DNA of 63,988 nucleotides, counting the filler, from Eremomyces bilateralis CBS 781.70 (Eukaryota), in the NCBI GenBank assembly GCA_010015585.1. It is 5 parts of 4 records of this genome, joined end to end, with 100 filler letters (N's around TTAATTAATTAA, not from the genome) between each part and the next. Parts side by side here need not be neighbours in the genome. Positions count along the whole stretch, not along the records: positions 1 to 20,696 come from ML975169.1; 4 more parts are not named here. One strand, given 5' to 3'. The notes under the pieces are model-generated. The model did not search any database. It saw only the letters and a program-made list of their open reading frames with translations, and was not told the DNA's origin. Below, piece by piece: positions 2,523 through 62,736 of this stretch (its first letter is position 1; every line of letters starts with the position of its first letter). The position numbers and the translations under genes are program-made.

Positions 2523-2756
2523 CTTCTACACCATATGCATCCATCATTCATCATTATTCGCATCGATCTCGTCTTGCCACTATACTGTACTGTATAAGTT
2601 GACCAAGGCGACTTCCTCCGTCGCGAGCAGCAGTGTCTCTTATTGCTTCAAACCTCGCCAAGTGCCCGTCGGCGTGAGACGAACCCTTCGTTCTGAATAG
2701 AATTCTTGGTATATAGCGAAATCTGCTGGTCCCTTCCCCGCTTAGCTCCCGGCATC

Positions 2757-4781
2757 ATGACAAACCGATACCAATACCGAACATTACAACGTTCCAGAGG
2801 TGAAGTCAGACTCCTGAAACTTTTACCGTACGATGGCAACGACAAGCTTAAATTCATTCCCACTTGCAATATCTTCCACGTCAGCCTTCATACGAAACCG
2901 AGGTTTACAGCCTTATCGTACGTCTGGGGAGCTGCTGCCGATTCACGTTTGATACTCCTGGAGAGCTCCCCAGTTCTAGTAACCAAAAACCTATACGATG
3001 CGATGATGGCACTTAGACCTACCAATGAACACATTATAATGTGGATCGATTCCCTTTGCATCAATCAGTTGGATGACGCGGAAAAGAGCTGGCAGGTTAC
3101 ACTTATGGCAGATATCTACCGACAGGCGGAAAAAGTCGTTGCATGGCTTGGTGCAGCAGATGATCAGAGCGATTCCGTGATGGACTACCTGAACTCTTTA
3201 GGAGCACAAGCGGAAGCTTGCGGTATGGACAATGGACCGGAACCCTTTCAAGAAATCTGGCAGAAGCTAGCGTCGAACCTCCCAGGAGCCCGTGACCTAA
3301 ACCGATCAAATGTCATGATGATGACACCAGCTGGCAAAGTACGAACGATTGCATATACTCAGGTGTGCAACCTCTTCTACTCCATCAGTGGCCGGCATGA
3401 TCCATGCAATCCACTACCGCTTGCTGGCATAAAACAGCTCTTTACTCGGCCATGGTGGGGTCGTGTATGGGTTTTACAAGAAATAACTCTTTCAGAGAAT
3501 GCTGAGTTCATTTGTGGGACTAAGAGACTCACACGGCGCAGATGCACTGCTGCTTTTAATGCGTATTGTGCTTTGCGGTTTATTCTCATGGAAAAATTCA
3601 CCCGCGAGCGGCTATCATTGACGCGTAATGAACTCGACATTATTCGACTCTTATTTCAACACCGACCGACCGTCATGCTATCGTCTTGGAATATATATCG
3701 GTATGGCAGATTCCCATTGGCAGCGCTCCTCCGTGCAACATGCGTCGGAAGTATCAATCTGCAGAACCATGGTCCACACCACCTAGAATCAACCGATCCT
3801 CGAGATAAAATTTTCGCTTTGTTGAGTCTGGCGGCAGACCAAGAAGAACTGGCAGATCTGGGTGTGTTCCCGGACTATACAAAATCCTGTAAGGAAATAT
3901 ACACGACGACTATGGCGGCTCTACTTCAACAAGGTCATATATCATTGCTCTCGTGCTGTCAAATGCCCAAATCTCAATCCGGCTTACCATCTTGGGTCCT
4001 AGACTGGTCTCGATCTGTGACAGATATGTTGCAAGACGTGGAAAATGATCATATCGTACTTTACCCGCAGTTTAGCGCTTCTGGAACGGGTCCTTCCGAA
4101 ATTACCATCATCAAGAAAAAGGACGTTATTGAGGGGTTATCAGTGGTAGGCCATATATATGACGAAATACGTGAGGTTGGTCGTTTCCCCGGCAGAACTT
4201 CTAGCCACGAAGTGCCTCTTGAAGAGACGGATTCTTGGCCAGTAAAATGGCTAGTTGAACTACTCCGACTCACATATTACGACAACAAACGCTACACAAC
4301 TTTTAGTGATCGCCTACGTGCAGCAGCCAGCACCTCAATCGGGGGTGTCTGGCATGATCAGAATACACGACTGGCAAGAGTTAGAGATGACTGTTTCTTT
4401 GGGGCGGTAGACCTCTTGCAGAATGGCATCAAGTATATCACGGAACACCAAATCAAACGTAAGGTGTACCAGCTCTTGGCCAACAAAGCTACCCAGCTCG
4501 AGGCCAGGGCCAGTGCGGCGCATGTGAAGCTAGACTCAGAGATTATGGGAAAGAGCTTAGGGCGACTTCCATTCATCACTAGAGAAGGCAACCTGGTCCT
4601 CTCTTCCGAGCATGTCAAGCGTGGCGACTTCATTGCACTAATCAGAGGAGCGCAAGTTCCCTTTGTTCTTCGACGTCAAAGCGGTGAAATTTATCAGCTC
4701 ATTAGCGAAGCGTATGTCGATGGGATTATGGACGGTGAGGTGATAGAGCAGAATAATTGTGGCATCATTAATCTTGTCTAG
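2757..4781 (+). CDS. Heterokaryon incompatibility HET-domain protein (HET-6-like), intronless
   Basis: Motifs VRLLKL, FTALSYVWG, WIDSLCINQ, WQVTLMADIY, WWGRVWVLQE, TDPRDKIFALL, LPSWVLDW and YVDGIMDGE; ATG at 2757; uninterrupted ORF. Confidence 0.92.
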   Translation: MTNRYQYRTLQRSRGEVRLLKLLPYDGNDKLKFIPTCNIFHVSLHTKPRFTALSYVWGAAADSRLILLESSPVLVTKNLYDAMMALRPTNEHIIMWIDSLCINQLDDAEKSWQVTLMADIYRQAEKVVAWLGAADDQSDSVMDYLNSLGAQAEACGMDNGPEPFQEIWQKLASNLPGARDLNRSNVMMMTPAGKVRTIAYTQVCNLFYSISGRHDPCNPLPLAGIKQLFTRPWWGRVWVLQEITLSENAEFICGTKRLTRRRCTAAFNAYCALRFILMEKFTRERLSLTRNELDIIRLLFQHRPTVMLSSWNIYRYGRFPLAALLRATCVGSINLQNHGPHHLESTDPRDKIFALLSLAADQEELADLGVFPDYTKSCKEIYTTTMAALLQQGHISLLSCCQMPKSQSGLPSWVLDWSRSVTDMLQDVENDHIVLYPQFSASGTGPSEITIIKKKDVIEGLSVVGHIYDEIREVGRFPGRTSSHEVPLEETDSWPVKWLVELLRLTYYDNKRYTTFSDRLRAAASTSIGGVWHDQNTRLARVRDDCFFGAVDLLQNGIKYITEHQIKRKVYQLLANKATQLEARASAAHVKLDSEIMGKSLGRLPFITREGNLVLSSEHVKRGDFIALIRGAQVPFVLRRQSGEIYQLISEAYVDGIMDGEVIEQNNCGIINLV

Positions 4782-5815: not shown

Positions 5816-6151
5816 TTAGGAGGATTGAGAGTTGCCCGTCAAGGAAATTCGACCCCGGATAGTTCTTTTGTAGGTCCCGGTAGAACTTCGCCGTTTGTAG
5901 CTGGCAGAGGCCTCCCACGGAGAGGACGACTGGACGAGGGGGACGAAGTCCTTTCCGTAGGCGCGGTACTTCGCAGTCTTTGCCTTAGCCGCCTCGTCGA
6001 GGACCGGGAGGGGCGCCTTGCCCTTAACTGAGCTGGCGTGGACGGACACGACGGTAAGGTCGTAGAAGGTCTCTCCAGGTGGTCCGAGGACGGAGATATC
6101 GTGTGATGGTCCCATAGAGCTCGGCACGGATAGACGGATATCACGGATCAT
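5816..6151 (-). mobile_element. Non-LTR retrotransposon fragment, restriction-like endonuclease C-terminus (CRE clade-like)
   Basis: HDISV...YDLTVVS...AAKAKTAKY...FVPLV fits the D..D/E..KxxKY RLE pattern; truncated by the Copia LTR at 6152. Confidence 0.6.
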
Positions 6152-6416
6152 TGTTATGGTCCCAGGCCTGCGGCCTGTTCCCTTGGTTGTGGCTGAAGAC
6201 GTGGCTGGTGGATTATATCAGAGAAGCAAACTGTTGATCGTTTTGGCGTGTCAATCAATCACGGAAACAATAGGATACCTGTTCAGAGGCAGTGAGATGC
6301 TTGTATTCGATCCGAAGTATATAGTTTACCTTGACGGGTATATATACCCAGGGCTTATGTAATCTTATGTAATCTACAAGGTGCGGTGACTAAGTAATAG
6401 CCGCGGAGTTCCGACA
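6152..6416 (-). mobile_element. Copia 3' LTR (family C)
   Basis: TG...CA ends; abuts a minus-strand G-run polypurine tract (6417-6425); second, interrupted copy at 54260-55218. Confidence 0.85.
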
Positions 6417-7195
6417 CACCCCCCCAGATCTAGAAAAGATCTGTATATCACAACCATATCGCGGAGTTATCCTTCTGAATCAGTTACGTTCGTTTCAGTG
6501 ACGGATGTGATCATATCTCGTAGGATTGTAATGAGATGCTGGATAGATCGCATATTCAGGTGCTCGAGGAATTTCCGGTAGTTCTAAGGGGAGAGTATCT
6601 TGGTAAGACCGTCGGCGACCATCTCAGATGTGGAGACCCATTCAACGTTAAGGTCACCAGTCTGGACCTCTTGGCGTAGCCAGAACTGATGGATATCAAC
6701 GTGACGGAGGCGTGAAGTGAGCAAAGGGGTTGGCTTAGAGACAATACCAACTGTCTGCTTATTATCACATTAGATCGTGAGTTCTTGCTCTAGATCAAAT
6801 CTGAGTTAACGGAAGAGACGGTTCATCGCGATTATTTCGCGTGCTGCCCAGGAGAGGGCAAGGAGCTCAGCTTCGGTTGTAGAGGTCGTTACCACTGTCT
6901 GACGGGCGGATTGCCAACGAACGGGGCCGTTGAACAGGTAAATGATGTATCCGTTAGAGGACTTGCGAGTCTCTAGATCATCAGCGAAGGATGCGTCAGA
7001 AGCAGCCTGGACGGGAAGTAAGCTAGCATCTGGAGGAGGTTGTGAAGACCCGGAGTATTCAAGTGCGTGGAATTTCGTCGTCTTTAGGTAGGCGATACAG
7101 CGATCAGCCTCTTCTATATGCCTTGGAGACGGATTGATGTTGTGACGGGAAAGCCTGGATACCGCAAGGGCGATATCAGGGCGTGTGGTCACTGC
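6417..7195 (-). mobile_element. Ty1/Copia pol remnant (RT C-terminus and RNase H) with stops
   Basis: TRPDIALAVSRLS, DASFADD...RKSSNGY, TTSTTEAELLAL, CDNKQ, HVDIHQFWLRQ and ADGLTK motifs. Confidence 0.9.
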
Positions 7196-7211
7196 GGCAT
7201 ATACAAGGGAG

Positions 7212-7998
7212 TCTAGACCATGCGTCTACTACCCGGAGGGGGTCTTCTGCCTAGGGGGCGTTTCTAGTCCTTGCGTCTTCTGTACAGTCCGCTGCGTTAT
7301 GGTTGGGGCCTTGGCACTTGAAGCATTGTCTGCTTCGTGGTATTTCGAAGAACTCTTTAATTCTCACGTATGATCCCTAGATAGAGATCGATCCTTCGTT
7401 AAGTAGTCTATCTTTCTCTGCTTGCGATCTATAGAAGACCACTAACTCGATTCTTAGGTTGGCTGATGGCCGGCTGAGTAGTCGTATACCGCGGATCTGG
7501 GCATCGTTCTCGAAGCAGATGGCCTTAATAATATCTTTATCGATCCGTCGACCTGTCTCTAGGTTGCCTACCGAGAATCTGTCGACTCCTGTTGCTTTGA
7601 CTTTGAAATCCTCGCGGATATTCAATTTTATGTCCTGGAGCGTTAGATCGTTGGCCCACGGTAGTGCTATCTCTATAGTTTCGACTTCCTGTTGTGATCG
7701 AAAGACGAAGCCTATGCTCTCTGGTCGGCGGTTTAGTACGGCGGTGTACTTGTAATTCTTCGTTTCGTCGGTTGCCTGTAGGGTCTTGTTCATTATTTCC
7801 TTAAGCTCCTTATTACCGGCCGAACTATATCGAGAAGCCGAAAGGTTAAGGTTAACCGTCGGTGGCCTATGGTTTTCCCTCCTTATCTGGCCGTTTCCTG
7901 GAGAGGGGATACGTGTCACGACGGGGTCGGAGACGGAACGAAGATCTGGGATGGTGTCTGGTGGTATAATGGCGATCGATGGTAAGAGCATCGTCGGG
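7212..7998 (-). mobile_element. Decayed fragment of the Tad1-like LINE ORF1
   Basis: Translation nearly identical to part of 45135-46502 (DTIPDLRSVSDP...LLNEGSISI), with added stops. Confidence 0.9.
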
Positions 7999-8291: not shown

Positions 8292-9927
8292 CTACAACTT
8301 GGCCTTAATCCACAGCTCTTCTTCCTCTTTCTCTGCTTGCTTTCTGGTCTCTTCCCATGCTTGAATCTTTGGAGCGACCATACCGGCCCATACCTTCAAC
8401 CATTCGTCGTCAAACGGCGCCAGTGCGATGCCATTGGTTCCTGGTACCGGATCTCCAGCTATGTTACGAAGGAATTCAAAGTAGTCGCGATAGTTTGGTG
8501 CAATGGAGTAGTAATTCTTCCCGCCAATAAACTCCGCAACCCGTTTAGTCTCCCACTCTTTCTGTTCTGCGGCTGGCGGGAGTGGCTTCGAGCGGCCTGC
8601 TAAATGACGTGCAACTGCGACAGCTTGCCATTCGTACACGCGGAAAGTAAATCCTCCACCGAGCTATCAGGATAGTCAATTTCAAGATCAGTCGGCAGAA
8701 CGTTGCGGCTGGACTCACCATTCCAACGAACGTAAGAGTTGGATCATCGATATTCCATGTGTGCTGGTAGACGCCGGGAAGTCGACGATATGCTCCCTTA
8801 ATTGTCTTTTGCACTTCGGGTATCCACGGTAGGCTGAAAGTGTAGCCGGTCCCAAAGATGACATGATCGACGTTGTCGACAGATGAGCCGTCTTCGAAGA
8901 AAATCCTTCCGCTTTCGGGATCGAACTGAGTGATTTGTTTCTTGACCACTATATGTGGATGAGTCCAAGGAATGAGTCCAAATGCCGGAATTGGATCGCC
9001 CCGTAGCGCTCCGAGTACTGGATGCTGCGCGTATGGTAAAATTTCATGGATGATTTCCGACGAAGACACGGACGCTCCAACGACAATCACGCGCTGCCAA
9101 CAAATCAGCAATTACCCAGTTTTTAGGAAGCGCCACATACCTTTCCCTTGTAACCTTTGGCATTTCTAAAGTGCTTGCTATGGATTATCCGCCCTGGGAA
9201 TCGCGCGTCGTACTCCAAGAGACCAGGAATCTTCGGAAGCCAAGGCACATTATAATGCCCACTCGCCACGACCAACGCATCGAAGCTCTCTTGCCACCAC
9301 CAATTCTTACCCGGCTCTTCCTTTCGAAGCGTCAGCACCCATTTGTCATCAATCTTCTCTGCCTTCTCCACAGTCGTGTTTAACTCTAGAAGCTTGTCGT
9401 TTCCGTTGCGAACAAAGACATCTTCGACCCACTCGCGAATTAGCTCGCGATCCCGGTACGGCGAATCTCGTCCATATTTCTTGCGAAGATCTGGAGAGAC
9501 TGTTGCTGGGAAGGGATATCTGGTGTAGCTCATGATAGGATCTACGATATTGCTGTGCAAGTTCTCATGGAGCGGCGTATCGGAGAAGCGAAACTGGTGA
9601 CTGTTTACGGCCTCCGATTTTGGAGTCACTGCAGGGAGCTGCGAAGGAATTTGTACTGGCACATCTCCATTTCCGGCGATTAAATCGCTCAACGAAGGAA
9701 TTTTTGCTGGGAGATGTGGTGTATAGACCCTATCTCGTAAGTTAAAAACTTCCGCGTTGTTGTATCTTAGGAGGCCGATGTTCAACTTACCAAACACCTC
9801 CGGGAATCGCCTTTCGTTCGAACACTCGGATAGTATCAAAAGCCTGCTCTTTAACGAGAGCATCCGTGGCAATGGCTCCAGCCGGTCCGGCCCCGATTAC
9901 TGCGACGCTCCTTGCTTTAATAGCCAT
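8292..9927 (-). CDS. Flavin-containing monooxygenase (FMO-like), 3 introns
   Basis: MAIKARSVAVIGAGPAG FAD motif, ASGHY, FPGRIIHSKHF FMO signature, VVGASVSS NADPH motif and GTGY; GT-AG introns near 9730-9790, 9095-9138 and 8665-8718. Confidence 0.9.
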
Positions 9928-10358: not shown

Positions 10359-10519
10359 TGTTATGGGCATGGCCCATGGTTGGCATAGGCTGAGAGCCTA
10401 AGCCTAATCAAAACTAGCGTAGAGATGGAACCTCATCCGGATGAATACACTGCTACCCCTGTAATGCGCTAGGACTGAGTAGGAAACTCCCTTGTCATAT
10501 GGACCGTGCGGTGAGAACA
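10359..10519. mobile_element. Diverged solo LTR related to family B
   Basis: TGTTATGGG...AGGCTGAGAGCCTAAGCCT is shared with 50904 and 54390; the right end is approximate and no clean TSD is seen. Confidence 0.5.
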
Positions 10520-10767
10520 AATCAGAGACTCAGAGTGCAAACCGGAAACCGATTCTGCTCGCGACTGTATATGATACTGTAGCAATACCTGCCGTGAATT
10601 ATGATTCCCTTCCGACGTTGTCCCACCCTCCGCAAAATGACCATGGACTTCTCACCAGGTGACGTATGTGGGGTGATCCATGTCCCGACCTCGCCATCCA
10701 CCTCCCACCCATCTCCTCCCAACTTCGGTCCACATGCAATGGCCCCGGAAGACGTCCAATCTTTAAA

Positions 10768-13725
10768 ATGCCGGACATAGTGCGCCGCATGCTGGTCCTC
10801 GCCGCCATCGACGGCCTGGTCCTCCAACCCGTCCCGCCGAGGAACCAGAAACCCGCCACCGAGCAGGCCATCACGGTCGGCTACAAGACGAATGCGATCC
10901 AGGCACTGCAGCATGATCGGCGCGAGGAAGCGAAGCCGCCGCCGTCGTTTGAAGCGCATGGGGTGGTTGGTACGTCAAGCGGGATACATTCCCTAAACAG
11001 CGTCGATATGCGCTGACTCTGCGTTCCAGGCCTGCTCAAGTTCGCCAGCTCCTCGTTTCTGGTCTTGATCTCCGCACGGGACCAAGTCGCCCAAATCCAC
11101 GGAATCCCCATCTTCACCCTCACCGACGTCGCCATCATCCCCCTCTCCTCTCAACGCGACGCGGAGACGGCGATCGCGCACATCCGCGCGACGCAGCAAC
11201 AGACCGCGGCAGGCGAGGATGCGGAGGATTCGGCGTCGGAGACGGAGTCGATTCTGAGCGAGGACTCGATACCGACGCCGGAGCGAGAGGCGAAAGGGAG
11301 TTCGACTACGAGCGAGGTGGTGGAGGATGTGTTTGGGCGGAAGGGGATGTATGGGCGGTTTGCGCAGCGGTGGTTTTCGCGGAGGAATTGGCGGGGTGAG
11401 CCGGAAGTTGCGGCGGAGAGGAGGGACGAGATGGAGTTGGAGGAGTTGAGGAAGAGGGAGGCGAGGGGGGAGGCTGGTGAAGAGGGCCTTGAGACACCAC
11501 TGGACTCGACGGCTGTAGAGGATGTAAACCAAGACGAGACTCCCGAGCCGGTGAAGGTGGACGATGACATGCCCGAGCCGTTGCTGCCCAAGGTTTTGAG
11601 GGTTGCGAAATTGCTGTTCACGTCGAGGAGTTTCTACTTCTCGTATGACTACGACTTGTCAAGAACGGTGACGGAGCAAGAGAAAGAAGCGGATTCGGTG
11701 CCGTTAAGTCAAAGATTCAATTCATTGGTAAGAGCTCGTCCGATCTATGATACGCGGAATCTAATTCTAGAAGTACTTCTGGAACCGTCATATTACGGAT
11801 CCTTTCATGGAAGCCGGCCAGCATAGCTTTGCCCTACCTCTTCTACAAGGATTCGTTGGGCAGCGCGAGTTCGAGGTGGAAGTATCACCGACTAGCAAGG
11901 AGGGGGCGATTATCAGTGCATCTAAACCGGAAGAGGATGATGAAGAGACGATAGAGAGCGCCGAGTCTTCCGGCGATCCCCGGCAGAGCCGTAAGCAGTA
12001 TCTCTTAACCTTAGTCTCCCGCCGATCCGTCAAACGAGCCGGACTGCGATATCTACGCCGCGGTGTCGACGAGGAAGGGAACGCGGCCAACAGCGTCGAG
12101 ACCGAGCAGATCTTCTCATCCTGCGACTGGGACGACCACGACACGAAGATACATTCCTTTGTCCAGTACCGAGGCAGCATCCCGCTCTTCTTCTCGCAAC
12201 CCCATACAGCTTCAAGCCGATCCCCGCATTCTTCGGATCGCCGGAGACCAACCGGGCGGCGTTCCAGCTTCATTTCTCGTCGTTGATTGAGCGGTATGGC
12301 AAGATTCAGGCGGTGTCGTTGGTGGATAAGAAGGCGACCGAGCGGAAGATCGGACAGGAGTTTGAAAATCATGCGAACGAGGTTGTCGATAGCGGAGTGT
12401 TGGGAGAGGGAAAGTTTGGTTTTCTATGGTTCGACTTCCATCATGTCTGTCGAGGGATGAAGTTCGAAAATGTCTCGATCTTGCTCGACAGCATTTCTTC
12501 TTTCCTGACATCCGCTGCCTGGTCGATTCAAGAAGGGGATCGCCTCGTGCAGAGGCAGTCTGGCGTCATCCGGACAAATTGCATGGACTGCCTGGACCGC
12601 ACGAATGTTGTACAATCCGCATGTGGTCGAGATGTCCTCGAGAAACAACTCGCCACATGTAATGTCTTGATTAACCTCCAGACCGATCCCACCACGTCAT
12701 GGTTCAACACACTCTGGGCTGACAACCGCGATGCGATATCTGCACAGTATGCAGGCACAGCTACGCTCAAGGGCGACTACACGCGGACAAGAAAGCGGAA
12801 TATCAGTGGTGCTCTGAACGACTTCCGGCTTACTTTGAATCGGTACTACAACAACATCGTAAACGACTACCTCGCACAGGCGGTCATTGACTACCTTCTC
12901 GGCCGCGCATCCGCCCAGGTCTTCGCGGACTTCGAGGCCGAGATGATGTCTCAAGACTACGCGGTGGATTTGAAGAAAATGAGACAAGGCGCTATCGACA
13001 ACTGCCTCCAGATCGCCGTCGAAGATGCGCGGGAAGAGTTCATTGCGGGCTATGCTCTGACGTCGCTGCGCAGGGCGTCAACCCTGAAAACGCTGCCGTT
13101 CGAAGAATGCGTGCTGCTCTTGACGGGAAGCGCGCTGTACCTGTGTCGCTTCGACTGGAACACCGAAAAGCTGCGTGAATTCGAGCGGGTCGAGCTAGAG
13201 GACATCATTGACATCACCCGCGGAGTGTACATCACGTCGACGTTAGCGCCGAAGCATTTAGACGAGACGAAGAACATCGGCATTGTCCTCCGATATGTCA
13301 GCAAAGGGCCACGAATGGTGCGGACGAATACCAGGAGCCTTGGAAACAAGCAGAAAGAAGGCGAGACGACTCCCGACGAAGGGGAGGACGATACGGTTGC
13401 GAACCAGCCGACGTCTCAGGAGACCAAGTTCTGGGCGCTGAAAGCCGGCCAACCGGTCTCGACTTTAAAGAGCATACACAGCAGCGCCACCGCGCTGAAT
13501 GAGCGGGAGGTTCTCGACCTCATATGTCAAGATGTAAAGCAAGCAGTCGATCTTCATCGCCAGCCGACATCCGAGATAGAAGGGGAACCTGGTGGAAAGG
13601 AAGCATGGCGGAGGGAGCCGCTCACAGTGGAGGAGGGCGACATTATTTCTGTTGCGGAAGCGAAGAAGAGCACGGGATTGATTGAACAGATGACATATAA
13701 CCTGAAGCGGCTGGTCTGGACATAG
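10768..13725 (+). CDS. Sac-domain phosphoinositide phosphatase (Sac2/INPP5F-like), with an apparent 1-nt frameshift near 12200
   Basis: [37 protein letters not shown] and catalytic [15 protein letters not shown]; introns ~10970-11029 and ~11728-11773. Confidence 0.85.
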
Positions 13726-13993
13726 GGAAGTATATAGCGAGGTCTTGGTTTAGTTAGGGTGGGTAGATAATGGGTATGTAGGACGACCGGAATATGGGAA
13801 TCGGTACTTCTCTGAAGTGTTCAGAAGAAGATTTTCATAGATATCAGCTAATAGGTTCATCCGCTTTGAATATTATGCCTTGGCATTGTTCGTTGGAAGA
13901 ACTTCGTCTCACTTTCTTTTCCTCTTCTTTTTTAACTCTCGTAATAATGAAAATTTCACCACTCTGATCCTAACGCACCCTTAAACCGTATCA

Positions 13994-16900
13994 TTACTGC
14001 CGCCTACTATGATTCTTTTCGTGCCTCTTCCGATCATTGTCCCTTGTAAAAGCCTTCCCACACTCTGTACATTCAAACGGTTTCTCTCCATTATGGCTCC
14101 TAATATGGCTCATCTTGTGAAAGTTCCGCGAAAAGCTTTTCCCGCAAATGTGGCAAACGTGCTTAGAAGACTCTATCACCTTCTTCGGTGTGAGTTTAAA
14201 TAATGCTGACAAGTCGCTCTTATCGGGGTGGTAGTCTCTCATGTGTTTTTCGAGCTCATAGTTAGAGGAAAACCCGAAGCTGATGGAGGTACAGTGCGGA
14301 ACATGGCAGACCCAGGGTCGGTTATGTCTGTCAATGTGCTTATCTCGCGTTTTAGCACTATCAAAGCCTTCGTAGAAATCAGGGCAGGTAACAAACGAGC
14401 ACTTAAAGCGCTTGTGGCCGTAATAGCCCACGAGGGCTCCTTTGGTGGCAGAATTCCTCGAGGATTCCATGGAGAACTTCTTAATGAGCTCCCGGTTCCG
14501 TCCGAATGCTTTCTTGAGCGATTGGAGGCATATTTCGTTGCGGAAGTTTGGTCCTTTCTCTATGTGTCTCGTAACATGGCTTATAATGCGAGTTATATCC
14601 TCGTAAACCTCATGGCTAGCAAGCTTATTGTAGTCGTCTCTCACATCGTCATGGACTGGCTCGTCCGATATATCATCTGCGTAGCGGTCCAGAAAACGAA
14701 ACATGGATCCATAGAGTGAATTCAGAGCTGCCAAGCTGTCTTCGACCTTAAAGCCTTCTTCGTTGTAGATTTTTGCCAAGGCGGCTAGATGTTGAAACCA
14801 TTTGGATACGACGTAGTCTTGCAGAGACAACCATCCATCCAGAGTGTACTGATTGATCTTTGTCTTCTCCAGATCGGGATCGAAAAGGTCCATGGTTAGG
14901 TATCTTAAGCAAAGTGATGCCAATTTACATTCGACATCCGGTTTGCTAATATATTGCGTCTTGGTCAAGTATCTAGCGTGGGTCAGCAAGTGCAGTTATG
15001 GTTTGGGTGGAAAGATCCATACATTCGTGCTGTGCCATGGACCAGCTCCAGTCTCTCTCCAGGAAGCTCACGCACTAATGTCCCGCAAAGCTCTGTTACT
15101 TTCGCGACCAGTCCTCTACTTTCAACGTCATGGAGCGTTTCGTTACTGTCGGTCAACTCCAAGCAAAAGGCACACTGAATCTCGTAGTGTTTAAGTGGCC
15201 GTTTGGCACAAATCATCCACCCCAGAAGATGAGTGATCTAATTCCAAGCTCCTTCTATACCTTTCCATTGTCTCTCAAGACGACCGAGGATCTTTGCATA
15301 CCTGAAGCGTCGTTAGTGATTCACTCCGACAGGACATGCCTATCGGCGGCTTGATTACACTCACGCTGCAGCAATGCCATCTGGAAAACGATGCTCATCA
15401 AGCTCTGTAACCACGTCGTTTTTGTTTGTTTGATTGAATAAATTTTCCAAGACCAGCTTCGCGTATAGGAACATTCCTGTACTCATGTAAGCTGATGAAC
15501 TGACAGAATGTTGGCCATACCATTCGTTCTCGAAGACGTAAGTCTTTCGATGCATTTCACTTCATCGAAGCTAAGTCGAAATTTCCGCCCAATTTGATCG
15601 GTCCACATCCCTACAAAGTCCTCAATCTCTTTTATATTATCCTTCGGGCGTATAGCGAACTGTCCTACAGAAAAATTCGGTCGGGCGCGGGACTCCTTAC
15701 TCAACGTTTCAGCAATATCTGCTTCGTCCTGGCTGACGATCAGCACGCGGAGTTTCCCAGGTTCATCGTCTTCTGCCTCGTCGACAACTTCGGCCAAGAA
15801 AGAGAGCAAAATCCGCCTTTCCTCCTTAGGACACTCGTCCAAGCCGTCAATGATGATAAACTGATTAAGAATTCGCTTGCAGGAAATCTTGATCAAGTTT
15901 TGGGCAAGTTGATGGGCTATTAACGTGACTTGTCCGCTCGATCTCGCCTTCATGAAGAAGTGAGGAATCATGGTTGGTTCTTGTGTGACCAATTGAACCA
16001 AGAGGCCCTGGAGAATGGAAAGAGCATCGCTCTTCTGCGTATCAGACTCCTTGCAGTAGAAGTATGAAGTTTTGAACCCTTTCTTTCTTTCGCACTCTTC
16101 GATGATTCTAGACGCGAGAATTGTTTTCCCTAAATTAGCAGGTTAGCAGCGTGTTTGATTCGGTACAACGCACTCACCCGCTCCAGGTATTCCGTTCAAC
16201 CAGAGTACCGGGTATCTTGGTGTCTCATCATCCATCCAGCTAGCCATCATTTCGTTCTGTATTATCCAGTCCCCACTGCCTGGATTACATTTTCTCACAT
16301 TGCAGAAGAACTCATGGTCGGCGACATGTTCCTGGGCAGTCTTATCCTCTCCTTCTGTCGGCCGCAAACAGGCCAACCATTCTATTACGCGCCAGTATTT
16401 CTTGTCTTTCTCTTCTTTCTCCTTGCTATCTAGTTCTACACGGAGTTTACCCCGCTTCAAGGCATATGTGTTGAGCTTCTCCATAATGGAGTAGATGTCG
16501 ACGGAGCTAGAAGTAACCGTGTACCGCGCAAGCGACTCAACCAGGTCCTTCTGGCGCTGGAAATTGACTAAAATGCCCTGGAAACGTGTGTCAAAGTTGC
16601 CCCAGTTTGCCTTGAAAACCTGTTTCCATCCGCGGTGACGGAAAAACTGCTGTGCTTTGATGTGAAATTCGAGTAAGTCAGCATACACCCAGCCTATAAT
16701 GCGCTGCATGAGCGGGTACTGGGTAAAGACTTTTTCATTTGCAGATAGGAAAGTCAGCTTTTCGCCAATGTCTTCATATGCACTTAGTAATGCATCAAAA
16801 GTTTCTGCGAAATGACTAGCTGCCTGTGGTATTGCTTAGTGATGTTCACGCCGGAGGACTGGGGCAAAAGCTTTTCGTCTGGCGTTACTTACGTGCAACA

Positions 16901-17934
16901 TGAACTTCATCGGACCCAATATATATGCAGCGTAGCTATCCTTGGGAAATCGTGCGCTGGATATTTTGACAATGGTGCTCATTCCCTGTAGGAAGTTGTT
17001 CAGCCGGGAGCAGTTTATTAGTGATTTCTTTCTTTCCTGGTCGCGCTGTAGGTTAAAGACTGCCCTCCTGACATCTTCGACCCGGGTTTCATGGAACTCA
17101 TTTCGTTCCTCGGCGGTAAGCAATGTCGTGAACTCATTCCATGCGTCCTGGAACATTTTCTCTATCCCATGAGATTCGTCACGGATACCGGGGAAGGCGG
17201 GTGGCCTAAAATTCCGCCTGATATCTTCTTTTAACCGTTGGTGCGCCTTGAGAAGCCCTTCACCGTAATTCATCACGAAGGAGACGTCGAATATGCCTAT
17301 TAGCGAGTAGGCCATGTCTTCTTCTCGCTTGGTTTTACGAGAACTGGCCCACTGAAACTTTTCGTCGTTGGTAAACTGAGATCGATCTTGGCCTTGTAAA
17401 GCTGTGACTGGGATCTTCGTTATGTCATGGATAAGCCCTTCTAGGGAGTGTTTGTCGCCGAGGTAGGTGCCTTCAGAGGAGAAGAACCGCACTACCTTTG
17501 GAGCGATAAGCTCCTGAAGAGTCCAGCCTCTGGTAAACCATCTGCTTGCCCGGAATGCCTGCTCCCACTCACATTGTAGACCATCGGCACCGACCGCTAA
17601 AACATCCGATAGATATACATAACATAACTCGGCGTTCTGGTACCAGCGAAACATGGAAGTGATGGCCTCTGTAACCTCACTTGAATCCTCCTTCTTAATA
17701 CAGCATCTATCGACCCAAGAGGAATTCTAGGTTATCAACTGCCGCTTTGTTTGCACAAAATTCAATCTTCTTGTATCCAAGCCTTCCCTTTCCAGAGCTC
17801 TCTGTGACGTCTTTGAAATTGACTTCATCTTCGTCTTCACCCCATGTGTGTGAAAGAATTGCATAAGGGGGTATTTTACCAGGTGTGAACGAGTGGAGGC
17901 TGACTTTGTTATGTCTGAAGTCAAGAAGCCGCAT
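13994..17934 (-). CDS. NLR-like protein: HET + helical domain + NACHT + 4 C2H2 zinc fingers; apparent frameshift near 17720
   Basis: PYAILSHTWG, WVDRCCI and WFTRGWTLQELIAP (HET); WLNGIPGAG/KT P-loop split by an intron; IIIDGLDEC; GMFLYAKLV; C-terminal C2H2 fingers with an NGEKPF linker; five GT-AG introns can be placed in frame. Confidence 0.85.
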
Positions 17935-18143
17935 TGCGGAGACGGCTCTCTGAGTTTGAATGTGATTTTCTAGCAAACGTAATGACTTTTCGATGAAAGT
18001 TTGTTGTTCATGGCAGGTGTAATGTCTCTTACGGATTGTAGGGGCTAAGGTAAGAGTCTAAATATAGAATACGAGATGTGAAGGAGCACTGCATTTTTAG
18101 CCTCCCCCGATTCATTACCCTCAGGCCGTCACTCCTACATTAC

Positions 18144-18259
18144 ACTGCAATTTTAGCGCCAGAGGACTCTTTGAAGCAAGGCTTACGAGACCGAAAGTGT
18201 GTAGTAAGCAAGCTACCTATTTACTGGATCAAAGAGTCCTCGGACGCTAAAATTGCAGT
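18144..18259. repeat. 31-bp inverted repeat upstream of the NLR-like gene
   Basis: ACTGCAATTTTAGCGCCAGAGGACTCTTTGA (18144-18174) pairs with 18229-18259, about 2 mismatches. Confidence 0.75.
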
Positions 18260-18699
18260 CTCCATTAGAATGTACGGGAGTTGTCCAATGGGAGGCGGAG
18301 GCGTCTGCACTGCAATACCAGTAGACTGAAAGGCGTGGCTGTTGATCGAAGGCATCGGACTGGATGACTTGGGCCTTGTCTACTTCGAGCCGGCAGGTTC
18401 GATAATAGCGCTGGCAGGTGGCTTTGCTTACTTAAATAGTGGCAGATTCGTGGCAGATTCGTGGCAGGTTCGATATTAGCGCCAGAATGGGTGTATGTCT
18501 ACTTTTTAATGGTGAAAACCTGCCGGCAGGTCTACATCCCGAAATGTGGCTTTTTTAGCGCAGCGCCACCTCGTATTTCGCTCAATTAGGCAAACCTGCG
18601 GCAGGTTTTTTTCTGCTACATCGATGGACCCGATAATAACGCTCGCTGGCAGGTTCTCTACTCCTCATTGTTATCACAATGGCCCCTCTACATCGTCCC

Positions 18700-18990
18700 A
18701 ACCCCCACCGCCCATTCTAGGCACCTCCACCACCTATTTTAGGCACTCCCCCCCACCGACTTTAGAACCCCATCATCACCCATTTTAAGCACCCTCTATC
18801 ATCCATTTTGGGGTACTCCCACCACCCGTTCTATCACCTGTGCCCAAAACGGGAGGCGGGAGTGATAAACGGTATCCAAAATAGGTGATAGTAGGGCCCA
18901 AAATAGGTGGTGGAGGTGCCCAAAACAGGTGATGGGGGATGCCCAGAATATGTTGTAGGGGTGCCCAGAATAGGTGGTAGGGGTGCCCAC
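18700..18990. repeat. Fold-back array of ~21-22-bp degenerate units
   Basis: Several TTTRGGCACYCCCACCACC-like units followed by several reverse-complement GGTGGTRGGGGTGCCCARAA units. Confidence 0.7.
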
Positions 18991-20696
18991 GCTTTAGGGA
19001 TTTTCGAAATAGACTAATTAGAGCATAGTATTCCTAGGTCACGTGGCTGGGATGTAGCTGCAGGGTGGATGGCGTAGTGACAGCTCGGCTGACCCTGAAA
19101 AAGGTTCGGCTCACCATCCTAATCGGGTTAGGTTAATCACGTGAGGTCAGTTGACCTATATCTATGATCGACGTTGGTCGGCTCACCTTTCTGGATACAC
19201 ACATCTCAATTCAACCCCACACTCCCTCTAACTATATGGATATGGAAAATGCGTAAGATGTTTCAAACATGTTTGAAATATGTATATTAATAACCATGCT
19301 GTAGCTTAATCTCTAATCCTTCTATCTAAAGAGAATTCTGATGATAAGAGTAATGAAGTCGACCAAGAAGATCTCCAGCTTATGTTTGATGATGATTTCT
19401 ATAAAGAATCATATATTGCAATTAAGGATGGTGAAGTAAATATCTTCCTGCGTAATATATTTAGAACATATTCATGTTCTTATCCTTTAATATCTAAACC
19501 TAAATTGCCGCTTACCACAAGAACTAATTATAATAAAAAAAGATTAGAACATTTTTCTGCAAAACAGCCCACAACTTGGAAATTAGCTGAGATTATGATC
19601 GTAATCGATTCTTCACACTTCATTCAATTATAATCAACTATTATAGCCCTCCCAAATAATGGTTAGAGGGCGCATGAGGGGGAAAGGCCCGCAGGCCAAA
19701 GACGCGTCCCCGACGCGTCCCCAGCAGGCGGACCACCCACGACCCAACACCCGCAACGGAGTAGGAGAACAAAATGGACGGACGGATGAGGGGCGGATGC
19801 TCCAAATTATGGAAAACCATATAAAACTCGCGTTGGAGAGCTGCCGTGGATGGGCTAGGGCGGGGTCGCTCCGTGGAGTTCTTGAGGCTTACCTAACGCC
19901 CGTTCTCCGGCTTATTCCGGAGCTAGCATAGAGAAAGAGTATAGAAAAGGCGCAGGCGGGAATACCCGCCAGGGACCTAGCGATGGGTCAAATATTGGAG
20001 CGCCTTGGACGTATTGAAGCTGGAATCGCGAAAGACCGCGGTTGTGAAGATTCACTACCTGCATGAGCCATTTGGGCCCTTTGGGCCCAGATCGGATTAT
20101 CTTTTATCCTTACCCCGCTTTTGAGGTATATAATACCCCGCACGAATCCTACCAACTCTCGACGGTAGCGATTCGCGCTGTTACACATTTACACGATTAC
20201 ATACAATACAAATACGTTGATACAGACTTCTTGATCTATTCAGTTGCCTACAGCAATCCAATATCACCCAGGACTACCAATCCTTGACACATATTCCGAA
20301 TATAACTAGTACTAAACTGATAGTTAACTTAAAGATAGTCTTCTTATCGGGGCGCAACATCGTTTCCGTACTGGTGTGGCGTGTGAGGAATAGAACGATA
20401 CGTGCAGCCTAGTTTTTCGTCAATTGGTGACACCGGTATATAAATATATTTTAAATATATTTTAAACACGTTCTAAAGAGTTCTAAAATCTATAGGACAT
20501 GGCTAGTATCTGCCATCCTTATCTAAGTTATAGTAACTCCACCATTTAGACAATGAGTAGACACTTTATAAAGTATTTACCGCTAAACGGAGAATTCGAT
20601 ACTAGTCATCTTCGAAGCCTTATCGAGAATGGTATACTAGTAGAGTAAGAGGAGTACGGAGTAGTTAAGTAGCAGTCGACTCGAAGACTAATATAT

Positions 20697-20796
20697 NNNN
20701 NNNNNNNNNNNNNNNNNNNNNNNNNNNNNNNNNNNNNNNNTTAATTAATTAANNNNNNNNNNNNNNNNNNNNNNNNNNNNNNNNNNNNNNNNNNNN
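20697..20796. other. Assembly spacer
   Basis: N44-TTAATTAATTAA-N44. Confidence 0.97.
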
Positions 20797-36971: not shown

Positions 36972-37071
36972 NNNNNNNNNNNNNNNNNNNNNNNNNNNNN
37001 NNNNNNNNNNNNNNNTTAATTAATTAANNNNNNNNNNNNNNNNNNNNNNNNNNNNNNNNNNNNNNNNNNNN
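36972..37071. other. Assembly spacer
   Basis: N44-TTAATTAATTAA-N44. Confidence 0.97.
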
Positions 37072-38499: not shown

Positions 38500-39362
38500 A
38501 CATAGATGGCGCGTATAGACGTGATTACGTCTAATCTAAGCTTTAAGGACCGACCAGACCATCTCGATGGGGTTGTAGTCTGGGGAGTAGGGTGGCGTAA
38601 AACGTACAAGATGTCCTGCTTCCTCGAGAAGCCTTATAACATCCTCTGAAACATGCGTCGAACAGTTATTAAGTATGATAACGCGTGGACGAGGAGAGTC
38701 TCTAGCCAAAGACGGAAGCAGGACGTCCCGTAGCCACTCAATCAAATGCTCTCGACTGTAGTAGCCTTAGCGTATGCCATAGGCAATTAAGCCTCTGATC
38801 GTATACGCCCCGATAGCAGCCCAAGTCTTTCCCCGATGCATGTTCCTGAAACCGCGGGATTCATGCCCAATGGGCGAATAACAACGGTATCTCCAGCCCG
38901 TCTTCTCATTGAAGATCGACTCGTCAAGGAAGACCATATCATCGGCGTCAAACTGACGAAGCTCCGCTTGATACGCTTCCCGCATCTCTTGTGACCGATT
39001 CCGCGAGATCTACCTCATTCTTTTTCGTGACCAGCGTCTCCGCTTAACCACGCGGCATACCGTAGACTCGCTAACGTGTACGCCTCTTTCCATATCCAAC
39101 CAGAATACGAGTTCATCAAGATATAGCCACCCTTCCTGGAGTAGTTTCTCGAAGAGCGCGTCTTCGTCTGCTTGCGACAATAAACAAGGACGGCCCCGTT
39201 TCCGGCGGTATGGGGCACGAAGAGAGCCATATCGAACAAGATGTGCACGATAGCGGTAGATAGTAGAAACTCCTAGGCCAGTTTCCGCTGCAATAGCTTG
39301 TGGTGACCAACCTAGGAGGAAATATCTAATGCATTGAGCGCGTTTCGTGTCTTCTACGCCAT
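38500..39362 (-). pseudogene. IS630/Tc1-type (DDE_3) transposase remnant
   Basis: MVFLDES, VIILNNCSTH and PPYSPDYNPIEMVWSVLKA; several TAG/TAA stops. Confidence 0.85.
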
Positions 39363-39682
39363 GGTAGTCATACTGCAGCTCTAAAGGCTGGCTAAAATCG
39401 CGTCAGTAATTTAAACTATATTAGTTCTCTAGGAATATATACATTTCAGACATTTGAGCCCCGAATTCAGCGCGTTGTGGCCATAAAATGGGCGATATCG
39501 CGTTTTCTGGTGGAATTGCGGGCGGGACACACACACACTCAAAAAAACGCCAAGCGTTCTCTCACATTTTGCAACCGCCAGCTATATCTCGCGCGCAGAG
39601 GCGCTGGTGGATTTCTTCCTTCTCTCTCTTCAGTTTAGATTAATGGAACTTGGTAATCGCAGACCTTGCACATCCAAACCGT

Positions 39683-44838: not shown

Positions 44839-45134
44839 TCAACGCCAATCCTGTTCTAAATATGGCTATTTTGGAAATGGGCCTATCTACTATCTCTCTT
44901 CCTGCGTGACTAGTTATTATAGTTTGTAATAGCAAGCACTAGAAATTCTGCATCGTAATACGCGTGGGAAGGTAAGGAGATCGGCAACCGAACAAGCGCG
45001 TCGCAACGCGTCAAGAGTGTACACACCCAGCAATAGTCGAGCATCAGGAACCTACCCAGCTAGTGGCCATCGTCCCACTGGAACCCACACTATACAATAC
45101 GTAGGAAGCTGGGCAGTAGAAAGGACCACCAGGA

Positions 45135-46502
45135 ATGCCCTCCCCCCTCCCGAGGGCGCCTCCAGGGAGAAGGGGTACAGCAACACCGACAACCCCAGAA
45201 CCAGAACCACCAAGTACAGGATCGACCCCCATGGCACCAGGAGTCACAACAAGAGCAGGAACGATAGCCCAAGGGATGGCAAAGGCCAGAGCCCAGGAAC
45301 TGAACAAACGACTGCAACAAGAGATGGCGACTAGCCAAAAGAGGGACCACGGCTCGAGTGACGCGATTATCAAGATGTTCCGAGACGGCATCGCGTCACT
45401 AGAAAAAGGAATCAAAGCACAGGCACTAGAACTGAAAACGGAGAACGAAAGGTTGAAGAGTAAACTAAACTATATGACCAACAAATTCGAGAGCGCCACG
45501 AACAAACTCGAAGAAGCTACGAACAAATTCCAGGATATGGAGATCTCGATCGAGACCATAAGGCAAACCCTAGAGAGAGTTGAACAAACGGTGGCGAGCC
45601 AACCTAGTATAGCTAGCCCCGTAGGAAGCGCGCGAACGGGATCATACGCCGCAATTACCGCGGCAGGATCGAACAGCCTGACAGTCCCTTCACCGACAAT
45701 GCTCTCACCATCGATCGCCATCACACCACTAGACACCATCCCAGATCTTCGTTCCGTCTCCGACCCTATCGCGACACGTATACACTCTCTAGGGAACGGC
45801 CAGATAAGGAGGGAAAACCATAGGCCACCGACTATTAACCTTAACCTTTCGGTTTCTCGATATAGGTCAGCTGGTAACAAGGAGCTTAAGGAAATGATGA
45901 ACAAGACCCTACAGGCAACCGACGAAACGAAGAATTGCAAGTGCACTGCCGTACTAAACCGCCGACCAGAGAGCATAGGCTTCGTCTTTCGATCACAACA
46001 GGAAGTCGAAACTATAGAGACAGCACTACCGTGGGCCAACGATCCAACGCTCCAGGACATAAAATTGAATATCCGCGAGGATTTCAAAGTCAAAGCAACA
46101 GGAGTCGACAGATTCTCAGTAGGCAACCCAGAGTCAGGTCGACGGATCGATGAAAATATTGTTAAGGATATCTGCATCGAGAACGATGCCCAGATCCGCG
46201 GCATACGGCTACTCAGCCGGCCATCAGCCCACCTAAGAATTGAGTTAGTGATCTTCTGTAGATCGCAAGCAGAGAAAGATAGACTACTCAACGAAGGATC
46301 GATCTCTATCCAAGGAGCATACGTGAGAATTAAAGAGTTCTTCGAAACACCACGAAGCAGACGATGCTTCAAGTGCCAAGGTCCCAACCATAACGCAGCG
46401 GATTGTATAGAAGACGCAAGGACTAGAAACGCCCCCCAGGAAGAAGACCCCCTCCAGGCAATAGACGCATGGTCTAGAAACGCCCCCCCAGGAATTCTCT
46501 AA
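45135..46502 (+). CDS. LINE ORF1 (gag-like)
   Basis: Coiled coil, SYAA motif and CFKCQGPNHNAADC zinc knuckle; open 455 codons. Confidence 0.85.
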   Translation: MPSPLPRAPPGRRGTATPTTPEPEPPSTGSTPMAPGVTTRAGTIAQGMAKARAQELNKRLQQEMATSQKRDHGSSDAIIKMFRDGIASLEKGIKAQALELKTENERLKSKLNYMTNKFESATNKLEEATNKFQDMEISIETIRQTLERVEQTVASQPSIASPVGSARTGSYAAITAAGSNSLTVPSPTMLSPSIAITPLDTIPDLRSVSDPIATRIHSLGNGQIRRENHRPPTINLNLSVSRYRSAGNKELKEMMNKTLQATDETKNCKCTAVLNRRPESIGFVFRSQQEVETIETALPWANDPTLQDIKLNIREDFKVKATGVDRFSVGNPESGRRIDENIVKDICIENDAQIRGIRLLSRPSAHLRIELVIFCRSQAEKDRLLNEGSISIQGAYVRIKEFFETPRSRRCFKCQGPNHNAADCIEDARTRNAPQEEDPLQAIDAWSRNAPPGIL

Positions 46503-49500: not shown

Positions 49501-50287
49501 TATAGCTATCTCGGAAGCCATCTCGGAAGCAACCGCTAAGATCCCGGCAATAGGCTGGAATCTCGACCAATACTATATCCTATCCGACTGCCAGAAGGCC
49601 CTAGGCATGGTTAAAAGACCGCAATGGAAAAAGAACAAACCTCTCCAGGAGATCTTCCAGAAACTAGCAGAGGCTAAGAAAAGAGGGTTCACCTTCACCT
49701 TCCATTGGGTGCCAGCGCACAAGGGAATACAAGGTAACGAGAGAGCCCACGACCTCGCCCAACTCGCTACTACCACCGGATCTGGACCAGAAGAGCATAC
49801 CATAGTACTAAGACACGCGATCAAGCAAGGAAGGAGCCACCCAGAGGCAAAGAGAAAGGCCTTCCTAGCCAAAAAGACCGGACGCCTCGCGAAGGACCTC
49901 GACAAAGCACTACCGAGCAGACATACAAGAAAGCTCTACGACAAGCTATCGAGAGCCCAAGCAGCCCTACTAGTACAAGCCAGATCAGGATACTGTCGCC
50001 TCAACAGCTACCTCTACAAGATCGCACAGGCCGAAAGCAGCGACTGTGTATGCGGAGCAACAGAGAGCGTCCCCCACTTTATACTAGAATGCACGAAATG
50101 GGACGAACAGAGACAGCAACTGAAGACAGTGGCGGGAGCCCGAGCAAGAGACCTGCCTTTCCTCCTTGGAGCGTACGAATCAGAACAGAAGGACGGCCCG
50201 ATCAAACGATGGTCTCCGAACACGGAAGTAGTTACGGCGACGATACAGTTCATCCAGGATACTGGAAGACTAGACCCAGGAACATGA
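46502..50287 (+). pseudogene. LINE ORF2: APE endonuclease, RT, RNase H and Cys/His tail, with nonsense codons
   Basis: ILQAN, IQEP, GDFN, SDH, KAPGPDG, YRPISLL, GLPQGSPLSP, FVDD, FTDGS and WVPAHKGIQGNERA; all in one frame, broken by TAG/TAA (e.g. 46988, 48572, 48956). Confidence 0.92.
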
Positions 50288-50718
50288 CATCCCTCTACAC
50301 CTTCTCTCCTCCACCTTCTCTCCTAGTTATACATTCCCTTCTACTAACTATATGGTCCCAACCCTCCGATCCGACGCTGTGCCCGAGTAAGAGCAGCGTC
50401 ACTCTAGATCAGAACCTAGAAGAACAGAGGCATTCAGCAAACTGACCATCTTATTCCCTTAACACAGTTATAATATTTCCCTATGTTAGCCGCAGATATA
50501 GAAGCTAGTTAGAAGACCGAAGATAGAAAATGGGGGCACAAGGCCACAAGGCACCAATGTATGTAATTAGTCAGCTTAGGTAGTTCCCCACATGGGCCTC
50601 GCCGAGAGGCCTGACGGGCGTATGAATCTCTCTCTCTCTCTCTCTAAATATGGCTCTCCACCCAACTAATTCGTTGGGCCTAGTCCCGTATCTCGATTCG
50701 TCAGATTTTGATGGAAAT

Positions 50719-51473: not shown

Positions 51474-51573
51474 NNNNNNNNNNNNNNNNNNNNNNNNNNN
51501 NNNNNNNNNNNNNNNNNTTAATTAATTAANNNNNNNNNNNNNNNNNNNNNNNNNNNNNNNNNNNNNNNNNNNN
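51474..51573. other. Assembly spacer
   Basis: N44-TTAATTAATTAA-N44. Confidence 0.97.
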
Positions 51574-62636: not shown

Positions 62637-62736
62637 NNNNNNNNNNNNNNNNNNNNNNNNNNNNNNNNNNNNNNNNNNNNTTAATTAATTAANNNNNNNN
62701 NNNNNNNNNNNNNNNNNNNNNNNNNNNNNNNNNNNN
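62637..62736. other. Assembly spacer
   Basis: N44-TTAATTAATTAA-N44. Confidence 0.97.

Follow-up and report, generated by a model that had tools for sequence, protein, structure and literature searches.

Fungal NOD-like receptors (NLRs) are known to reshuffle their domains (PMC4986451), and those ending in C2H2 zinc fingers are a recognised non-canonical class: Bonometti et al. 2025 described 34 Sordariales NLRs with C2H2 fingers and proposed a sensor role for them (PMC12258605). Table S3 of that paper holds 27 zf-C2H2 rows, 24 of them T-NACHT, six with sesB and none with HET; it includes Goodbye and sesB-Goodbye versions, one from Podospora anserina. The HNWD receptors (het-e/d/r) join an N-terminal HET to NACHT (PMC12881547) and have WD40 repeats with high internal conservation. 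HET itself is a TIR-related death domain of unknown biochemistry (PMC10890737, PMC12881547). In Arabidopsis, RRS1-R, paired with RPS4, is an NLR ending in a DNA-binding domain from a host transcription factor family, and lost DNA binding of this WRKY decoy activates defence (PMC4627273).

Here we analyse a gene of the fungus Eremomyces bilateralis CBS 781.70 (assembly GCA_010015585.1) situated in a stretch of 63,988 nt (hereafter, the window), in which five contigs are joined via N linkers. The gene lies on the minus strand of a 20.7 kb contig and, according to splice signals, runs in six exons from an ATG at 17934 to a stop at 13994. Similarly to fungal T-NACHT NLRs, it encodes N-terminal HET and DUF7708 domains, a NACHT carrying both Walker motifs (A and B) and, after it, a winged helix; unlike them, it has neither C-terminal repeats of WD40, ankyrin, TPR or HEAT type nor one intact frame. 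It ends in four C2H2 fingers. We found this NLR gene to be transcribed, spliced and broken by a frameshift and a stop codon, and consider the chances about even that its intact form was a decoy for sites of Crz1, a calcineurin-responsive transcription factor of the stress response, triggering HET-dependent death when the fingers were disturbed.

Transcription was evident from sequencing run X3, where a single 4133-nt contig extends from 17998 to 13600 and skips exactly all five predicted introns, so that HET and fingers are covered by a single spliced RNA. Run X3 comes from another sample and study than the assembly, possibly from the same strain, and its RNA nature is shown by the splicing; runs X1 and X2 are DNA, possibly from the assembly's own sample. 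Neither strand nor expression level is readable from the run contigs, and rare variants are dropped from them. Run X4, under the same species label, gave no match at the locus or at the neighbouring SAC1-like duplicate and is uninformative. The preliminary description of this DNA had proposed one spliced gene reaching from HET to the fingers, and this was confirmed together with its transcription; two separate genes were not seen.

Pfam recovered HET, DUF7708, NPHP3_N/NACHT, winged helix and zf-C2H2 in the gene, and zero matches to WD40, ankyrin or TPR at E ≤ 0.1, in agreement with the initial reading. Likewise, the motifs named at the outset are all present: GIPGAGKT (Walker A, split by intron 2 after GIPGAG), DGLDE, four C2H2 fingers and the NGEKPF linker. 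HETs like this one occur on NLRs with a NACHT or an NB-ARC, a type that we take to be HET-E. Its TIR-like glutamate presumably lies within the motif RGWTLQE. A conserved glutamate of HET is described in PMC9815663. The features of the gene are as follows.

16893 to 17934, minus strand: exon 1; HET-E-type HET (about 17934-17230), linker and beginning of the Goodbye-like/DUF7708 helical domain
17718 to 17724, minus strand: lesion 1; a single extra base shifts the frame inside HET, and the ATG frame ends at TAG 17709-17707
17511 to 17531, minus strand: motif RGWTLQE of HET, not in the frame opened by the start codon
16824 to 16892, minus strand: intron 1, 69 nt; splice signals and RNA contig
16178 to 16823, minus strand: exon 2; DUF7708 (Goodbye-like; Pfam E 2.9e-7), pre-NACHT helix, NPHP3_N and first half of Walker A
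16130 to 16177, minus strand: intron 2, 48 nt, within Walker A; splice signals and RNA contig
15521 to 16129, minus strand: exon 3; NACHT core (NPHP3_N E 1.9e-23, NACHT E 2.1e-6)
15848 to 15834, minus strand: Walker B DGLDE, in exon 3
15477 to 15520, minus strand: intron 3, 44 nt; splice signals and RNA contig
15365 to 15476, minus strand: exon 4; helical region following the NACHT core
15302 to 15364, minus strand: intron 4, 63 nt; splice signals and RNA contig
15023 to 15301, minus strand: exon 5; winged-helix domain (GPIID_WHD E 4.3e-9)
15238 to 15240, minus strand: lesion 2; in-frame TAG, codon 824, at the start of the winged helix, the true end being codon 1222
14973 to 15022, minus strand: intron 5, 50 nt; splice signals and RNA contig
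13994 to 14972, minus strand: exon 6; a helical domain, then the four C2H2 fingers, with the stop codon at 13996-13994
14228 to 14401, minus strand: fingers 1-2, of atypical spacing, constant in the NACHT clade
14009 to 14155, minus strand: fingers 3-4, Crz1-like tandem pair with the NGEKPF linker; the third finger of Crz1 is absent

The DUF7708 domain occupies the position labelled Goodbye/NAD1 in table S3 of PMC12258605. No direct Pfam match to Goodbye was obtained; Atlas feature matches of 0.89-0.94 were to DUF7708 and Goodbye clusters, and every template modelling score was below 0.5 in the Atlas structure search with the N-terminal domain. Among solved structures, the best 60 of 277 matches were all zinc-finger proteins.

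The spliced coding sequence counts 3667 nt, i.e. one base too many, and because of the extra base at 17724-17718 the ATG frame ends after 75 codons (the stop being codon 76). Exon 1 is colinear with the relative P0004, which aligns to residues 1-72 in the first frame and to residues 73-1109 in the next. Owing to the frameshift, HET and the helical domain are therefore read in different frames, and the TAG severs the fingers from NACHT: the two N-terminal domains share an exon, as described earlier, but not a reading frame, and an intact HET-NACHT-finger protein is contradicted by both DNA and RNA. At the lesion sites, runs X1, X2 and X3 showed zero other letters and zero gaps, with X3 unspliced there. 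Introns removing either lesion were rejected, as none of the GT-AG candidates listed with donor and branch site covered one of them and the RNA contig was unspliced there. The database protein P0001, labelled Eremomyces bilateralis and matching exon 6 at 100%, conceals both lesions, for this public model begins after HET and splices around the TAG.

With an X at the lesion, the read-through protein has 1221 residues and retains 87 of the 93 columns that are conserved across 63 other members, compared with 89 in P0003, and the HET keeps 78 of its 80 conserved columns. Heavy repeat-induced point mutation (RIP) was rejected as a cause, RIP indices being negative across the gene. Since conserved columns are otherwise kept and these indices are negative, the loss of function was very probably recent. 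The copy yields at most fragments, from frames of 75, 730 and 390 residues, and is most likely a null allele; NLR alleles broken by stops and frameshifts are common in fungi, as in Podospora (PMC13449251). Being broken, it is a poor experimental subject.

The locus could instead work through fragments (re-initiation giving a 730-residue NACHT and a 390-residue finger protein) or through recoding (frameshifting plus read-through or A-to-I editing), and it is true that the transcript is fully spliced, that ATG opens both downstream frames and that the variable lesion-2 column tolerates many residues. We regard this as quite improbable: two independent recoding events would be required, the RNA contig has no changed letter, the 730-residue frame is devoid of the first 93 HET codons and most of the winged helix, and the same kind of pseudogenisation is frequent among fungal NLRs (PMC13449251). 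Furthermore, Trp, the editing product, occupies the column in 1 of 66 relatives. On this count, and on the unchanged letter of the X3 contig, A-to-I editing of the TAG was rejected, rare editing being invisible in contigs.

Relatives were collected with a profile of 12 sequences, taking the best 150 of 1.84 billion representatives; this family set is biased to four-finger proteins, because the profile contained them. NACHT with at least one finger was found in 126 of 197 proteins (58 with four fingers, 50 with two, 14 with three, 3 with one and 1 with five), and named members span, by class assignments that are in part our presumption, Dothideomycetes, Eurotiomycetes, Leotiomycetes and Sordariomycetes. 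A tail longer than 150 residues is present in 37 of 45 two-finger members and carries repeats in 33 of those 37 (ankyrin in 31, WD40 in two). As fingers 1-2 also precede ankyrin or WD40, they are part of the chassis, and only fingers 3-4 occupy the sensor slot. The notion of fingers standing in place of sensor repeats consequently holds for fingers 3-4 and fails for fingers 1-2, which are fixed in the chassis. By contrast, PMC12258605 has only treble-clef fingers beside canonical repeats. In a quick NACHT tree (99 rows), the main ankyrin clade (28 rows) was nested among finger-bearing lineages with moderate support; this tree omits P0001, P0002, P0049, P0050, P0198, fingerless rows and proteins failing the Walker A pattern (P0006 and P0088 included).

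The chassis, Goodbye-like–NACHT–C2H2, occurs widely and has been catalogued before, the Sordariales Goodbye-like–T-NACHT–C2H2 NLRs having the same one (PMC12258605); the gene in question differs from the 27 zf-C2H2 rows of table S3 in having a HET, and that article nowhere uses the word Crz1. The architecture had been thought potentially new. Its chassis is common and catalogued, and P0090 of Cercospora kikuchii, a model of 1546 residues, comprises HET, chassis and all four fingers; what does stand is that no functional study of any member was found in the literature searched. That literature, which held few subscription papers, also gave no report linking Crz1 to an NLR or NACHT protein and no work on deletion mutants of NACHT-C2H2 genes. 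As for HNWD, the gene has none of its WD40 repeats and so does not belong there; it has, in addition, a Goodbye-like domain between HET and NACHT, terminal zinc fingers and a broken frame.

By their best matches, fingers 3-4 are derived from the Crz1 DNA-binding domain. The best match of exon 6 in its own genome (52%) was locus L002 on contig C5, the orthologues of which at 93-95% identity carry the names CRZ1 or crzA, and among eight own-genome C2H2 factors it was L002 that scored best against fingers 3-4 in 50 of 56 four-finger members. The idea of an integrated transcription-factor decoy has thereby gained a specific source, Crz1, while a decoy function would follow by analogy. It is fingers 1-2 of Crz1/CrzA that resemble fingers 3-4 of our gene (52%). 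The R/D/R helix of the second finger is common to both pairs, while position 3 of finger 3 is H, versus N in Crz1. Only this DNA-binding part is shared, the N-terminus being an NLR body, and the genome retains a separate true Crz1 on contig C5. The third finger of Crz1 is kept in about half of the relatives (28 of 56 members reached at least 15 bits with its profile, 26 at least 20 bits) and is lost in the present gene and its clade, the protein ending four residues past finger 4. An Atlas feature search with the Crz1 domain returned generic C2H2 clusters. Fingers 1-2 had canonical spacing in 0 of 56 four-finger members scored.

Residues expected to contact bases are well kept. Across 55 members, finger 4 has R at position -1 in 51, D at position 3 in 50 and R at position 6 in 54, with positions 1 and 5 variable (top residue 16% and 33%); in finger 3, R at -1 is kept in 46 of 55 and positions 2, 3 and 6 vary. 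Fingers 3-4 probably bind DNA. Under the C2H2 recognition code as we assume it, the pair of this gene would read about GCK-NGG. The predicted sequence appears close to the Crz1 site, GNGGCKCA (PMC11087348). Counts of GCKNGG, GCKNAG and the calcineurin-dependent response element (CDRE) were at chance level in three flanks of the gene. A cluster of cognate sites beside the gene was rejected, as the GGCAGG excess (9 versus 1.1 expected) falls in a multicopy repeat.

One could suppose that the fingers sense foreign or misplaced nucleic acid (of a virus, a transposon or non-self nuclei) and switch HET directly; positions 2, 3 and 6 of finger 3 vary as in a diversifying sensor, and the atypical fingers 1-2 could bind RNA or protein. 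However, finger 4 is almost invariant and shows no diversification, the roughly 6 bp read by two fingers would presumably not separate self from non-self, and the host factor from which the fingers are copied has its sites in host promoters (PMC11087348). Such a sensor is improbable, and it is the weakest of three options offered in the preliminary description.

Effectors were added to the chassis repeatedly. PNP_UDP stands N-terminal to it in P0055, P0063, P0073 and P0088, and weak DUF676 matches (E 0.001-0.05) were obtained in P0026, P0092, P0120 and P0191. In the NACHT tree, the window gene grouped with P0004, P0003 and P0054 at 100% support in the Shimodaira-Hasegawa-like approximate likelihood ratio test (SH-aLRT), P0090 was placed elsewhere, and three PNP_UDP members fell on separate branches. 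The HETs of P0090 and of the window gene are 23% identical, and a single clade of HET bearers was rejected (p-AU 0.0001, 14 rows) in the approximately unbiased (AU) test, for which, here and below, groups were named after trees had been seen and trees were run in quick mode, a point against the conclusions drawn. On this evidence HET has joined the chassis at least twice, and PNP_UDP and SesB-like effectors were added too. It should be added that Goodbye-like domains are often paired with a second effector (PMC9815663). That HET, PNP_UDP and SesB-like domains were gained again and again speaks for a death switch and not just a regulator.

The regulator in question would be a nucleotide-switched factor of transcription or chromatin acting at Crz1-type sites, with HET as an occasional, poorly tolerated passenger, inactivated here. 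Conservation of base-contact residues speaks for it, as does the absence of an added effector in most members, the Podospora anserina gene podans-001_g5255 among them; effector-less sister groups sort by fungal order (Pleosporales, Helotiales, Chaetothyriales), as an ordinary orthologue would. Furthermore, the gene model P0002 (Chaetothyriales sp. CBS 132003) joins an SNF2 helicase, fragments of the closest NLR relative and a longin SNARE, although these are probably neighbouring genes merged by annotation, and a search for an SNF2 partner gave nothing significant, either in the window (best E 0.04) or on contig C21, there being no SNF2 gene on the NLR contig. Also at odds with a regulator, the same chassis swaps its finger pair for ankyrin or WD40, and known NLR effectors of three kinds have repeatedly been joined to it. 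Finally, mean pair identity of fingers 3-4 is 0.43, low given fixed targets, versus 0.98 among 85 Crz1 orthologues, a value that reads high because the set was picked by likeness to the query, which lessens its weight for the decoy.

We next turn to the origin of the HET-bearing form. In the HET tree, the window gene grouped with P0004 and P0006 (98% SH-aLRT), apart from 13 HET paralogs of its own genome; the chain from HET to NACHT is shared with both proteins, at 63% and 54% identity respectively, and no close chassis paralog exists in the own genome (best 25-33%). Given this HET grouping and the absence of a close chassis paralog, the HET-chassis fusion arrived as a unit. A recent local fusion between HET and a NACHT-finger gene, another of the earlier options, was contradicted. 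In its wider form, as a non-functional local fusion of an own HET gene with a NACHT-finger gene, or as an assembly artefact, it could appeal to the small, repeat-rich contig and to 53 matches to this HET type in the genome (G000, 26.9 Mb), 12 of them with internal stops. It is nevertheless hardly credible in view of the chain shared with P0004 and P0006, the single clade of the three HETs, the distant chassis paralogs and the agreement of the assembly with DNA and RNA contigs.

The clade of the window gene mixes Eremomycetales, Aulographales, Microthyriales, Helotiales and Chaetothyriales. Its sister was the Chaetothyriales protein P0002 (99% SH-aLRT) at 68-76% identity; as identity controls, other Chaetothyriales members gave 34%, and the SNARE orthologue from the P0002 record gave 56%, this latter control being one gene and correspondingly weak as support. 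A Dothideomycete clade was rejected (p-AU 0.0002), and so were Helotiales and Chaetothyriales groupings. These data point, with somewhat better than even probability, to horizontal transfer as the route by which the HET version reached the Eremomyces genome, old paralogy with loss being the alternative. A metagenome scan for DNA of close relatives confirmed 2 of 333 candidate stretches, both at 21% identity, and is uninformative.

The mechanism that we propose for the intact protein, by analogy with STAND proteins and with RRS1-R, would proceed in four steps. Fingers would tether the closed receptor to Crz1-type DNA sites, the DNA-bound state keeping NACHT shut; an antagonist's effector aimed at a Crz1-like surface, or displacement from DNA, would open the receptor; nucleotide exchange would lead to oligomerisation; and the clustered TIR-like HET domains would cause cell death. 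Likeness to RRS1-R is in the terminal DNA-binding domain from a host transcription factor family. Unlike RRS1-R, the gene has no adjacent partner NLR, and effector and decoy are in one chain; the comparison is no more than an analogy.

Several points weigh against the decoy. Neither an effector aimed at Crz1, nor a DNA-binding assay, nor a death phenotype was found for any member in the literature searched. Most four-finger members are without an added effector, an N-terminal extension above 150 residues being present in nine besides P0002, and cell-death activity of Goodbye-like domains is, according to PMC9815663, unproven. The kept base-contact residues are equally compatible with a transcription regulator. 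The full chain from HET to finger 4 occurs in 0 of 6 database models of the own clade: P0003 and P0054 start downstream of HET, P0004 breaks off past finger 1 and P0006 at intron 3, and the P0002 model is in fragments. Hence what we call the intact HET-E-type form is a reconstruction, not something seen, and the incomplete models may reflect decay or poor annotation. Likewise, the lesions may be specific to one strain, since X3 may come from the same strain as the assembly, and run contigs lose rare variants. As an added effector is absent from most members and the conserved contacts are compatible with both readings, we hold the whole decoy mechanism, from DNA-bound fingers to HET-driven death, as a tentative model falling somewhat short of even odds, and the regulator as possible but unlikely.

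The surroundings of the gene hold the following features.

17935 to 18365, strand unassigned: short unique upstream region, holding the start of the RNA contig (17998); predicted finger and CDRE sites are not in excess
18366 to 20696, strand unassigned: multicopy repeats to the contig end, with a GGCAGG-rich element (99% copy on C43); not part of the gene
10568 to 13900, plus strand: SAC1/Sac2-like phosphatase gene, convergent; 87% duplicate of L012 (G000:C24:219540-222883), in two frames versus one in the C24 copy

No partner NLR is adjacent, the neighbours being the SAC1-like duplicate and repeats, and the contig ends 2.8 kb upstream. Differences between the SAC1-like copies are without C-to-T bias, and 94 nt separate the end of the duplicated stretch from the NLR stop. 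Upstream, 18144-18259 contains a 31-nt inverted repeat (94% complementary, arms 54 nt apart, about 210 nt before the ATG, no other copy listed). The multicopy element at 18366-19073 is likely a non-autonomous transposon; it contains the motif GGCAG(G/A) nine times, has direct and inverted repeats of 22 nt inside it, and has copies at 99% on C43 and 89% on C34. Elsewhere on the NLR contig we noted a second HET-domain gene (2697-4778, plus strand, an open frame of 694 residues), frames resembling a copia-type retroelement remnant (5819-7225, minus strand, by eye, no Pfam match), a flavin monooxygenase-like gene (8548-9896, minus strand) and a 79-bp element (10359-10437) with about twenty genome-wide copies at 85-99% identity and no Rfam match. 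Rfam gave 0 matches over 1-20696. Near-identical HET pairs are found on different contigs of the genome (L021/L023 and L020/L022).

Linkers of the form N44-TTAATTAATTAA-N44 lie at 20697-20796, 36972-37071, 51474-51573 and 62637-62736; as they join separate contigs, genes on opposite sides of a linker need not be neighbours. The other contigs contain a LINE-like retroelement (45120-50442, plus strand) with endonuclease, reverse transcriptase and RNase H across several frames, a pogo/Tc5-type DDE transposase (57134-58870, minus strand, 579-residue frame) and a transposase-like helix-turn-helix fragment (39013-39402, minus strand).

The interest of these data is in the family, with its Crz1-derived module in the sensor slot, repeated arming and likely transfer, and not in this allele. 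It is conceivable, though we regard it as doubtful, that filamentous fungi possess an RRS1-like class of chromatin-bound NLRs, in which a Crz1-derived decoy, interchangeable with ankyrin or WD40 in the sensor slot, would guard the calcineurin-Crz1 pathway against effectors of bacteria, mycoparasites or viruses. Such receptors would have been armed independently with HET (twice), PNP_UDP and SesB-like domains; the HET-E-type form would have moved among three fungal classes and been repeatedly switched off as costly, with the Eremomyces gene as a freshly disarmed copy. Sensor targets of most fungal NLRs are unknown, and a slot filled by a transcription factor domain names a candidate guarded target, Crz1. 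The question becomes testable, for Podospora anserina has a member of the family, and both the predicted DNA site and the base-contact residues can be assayed.

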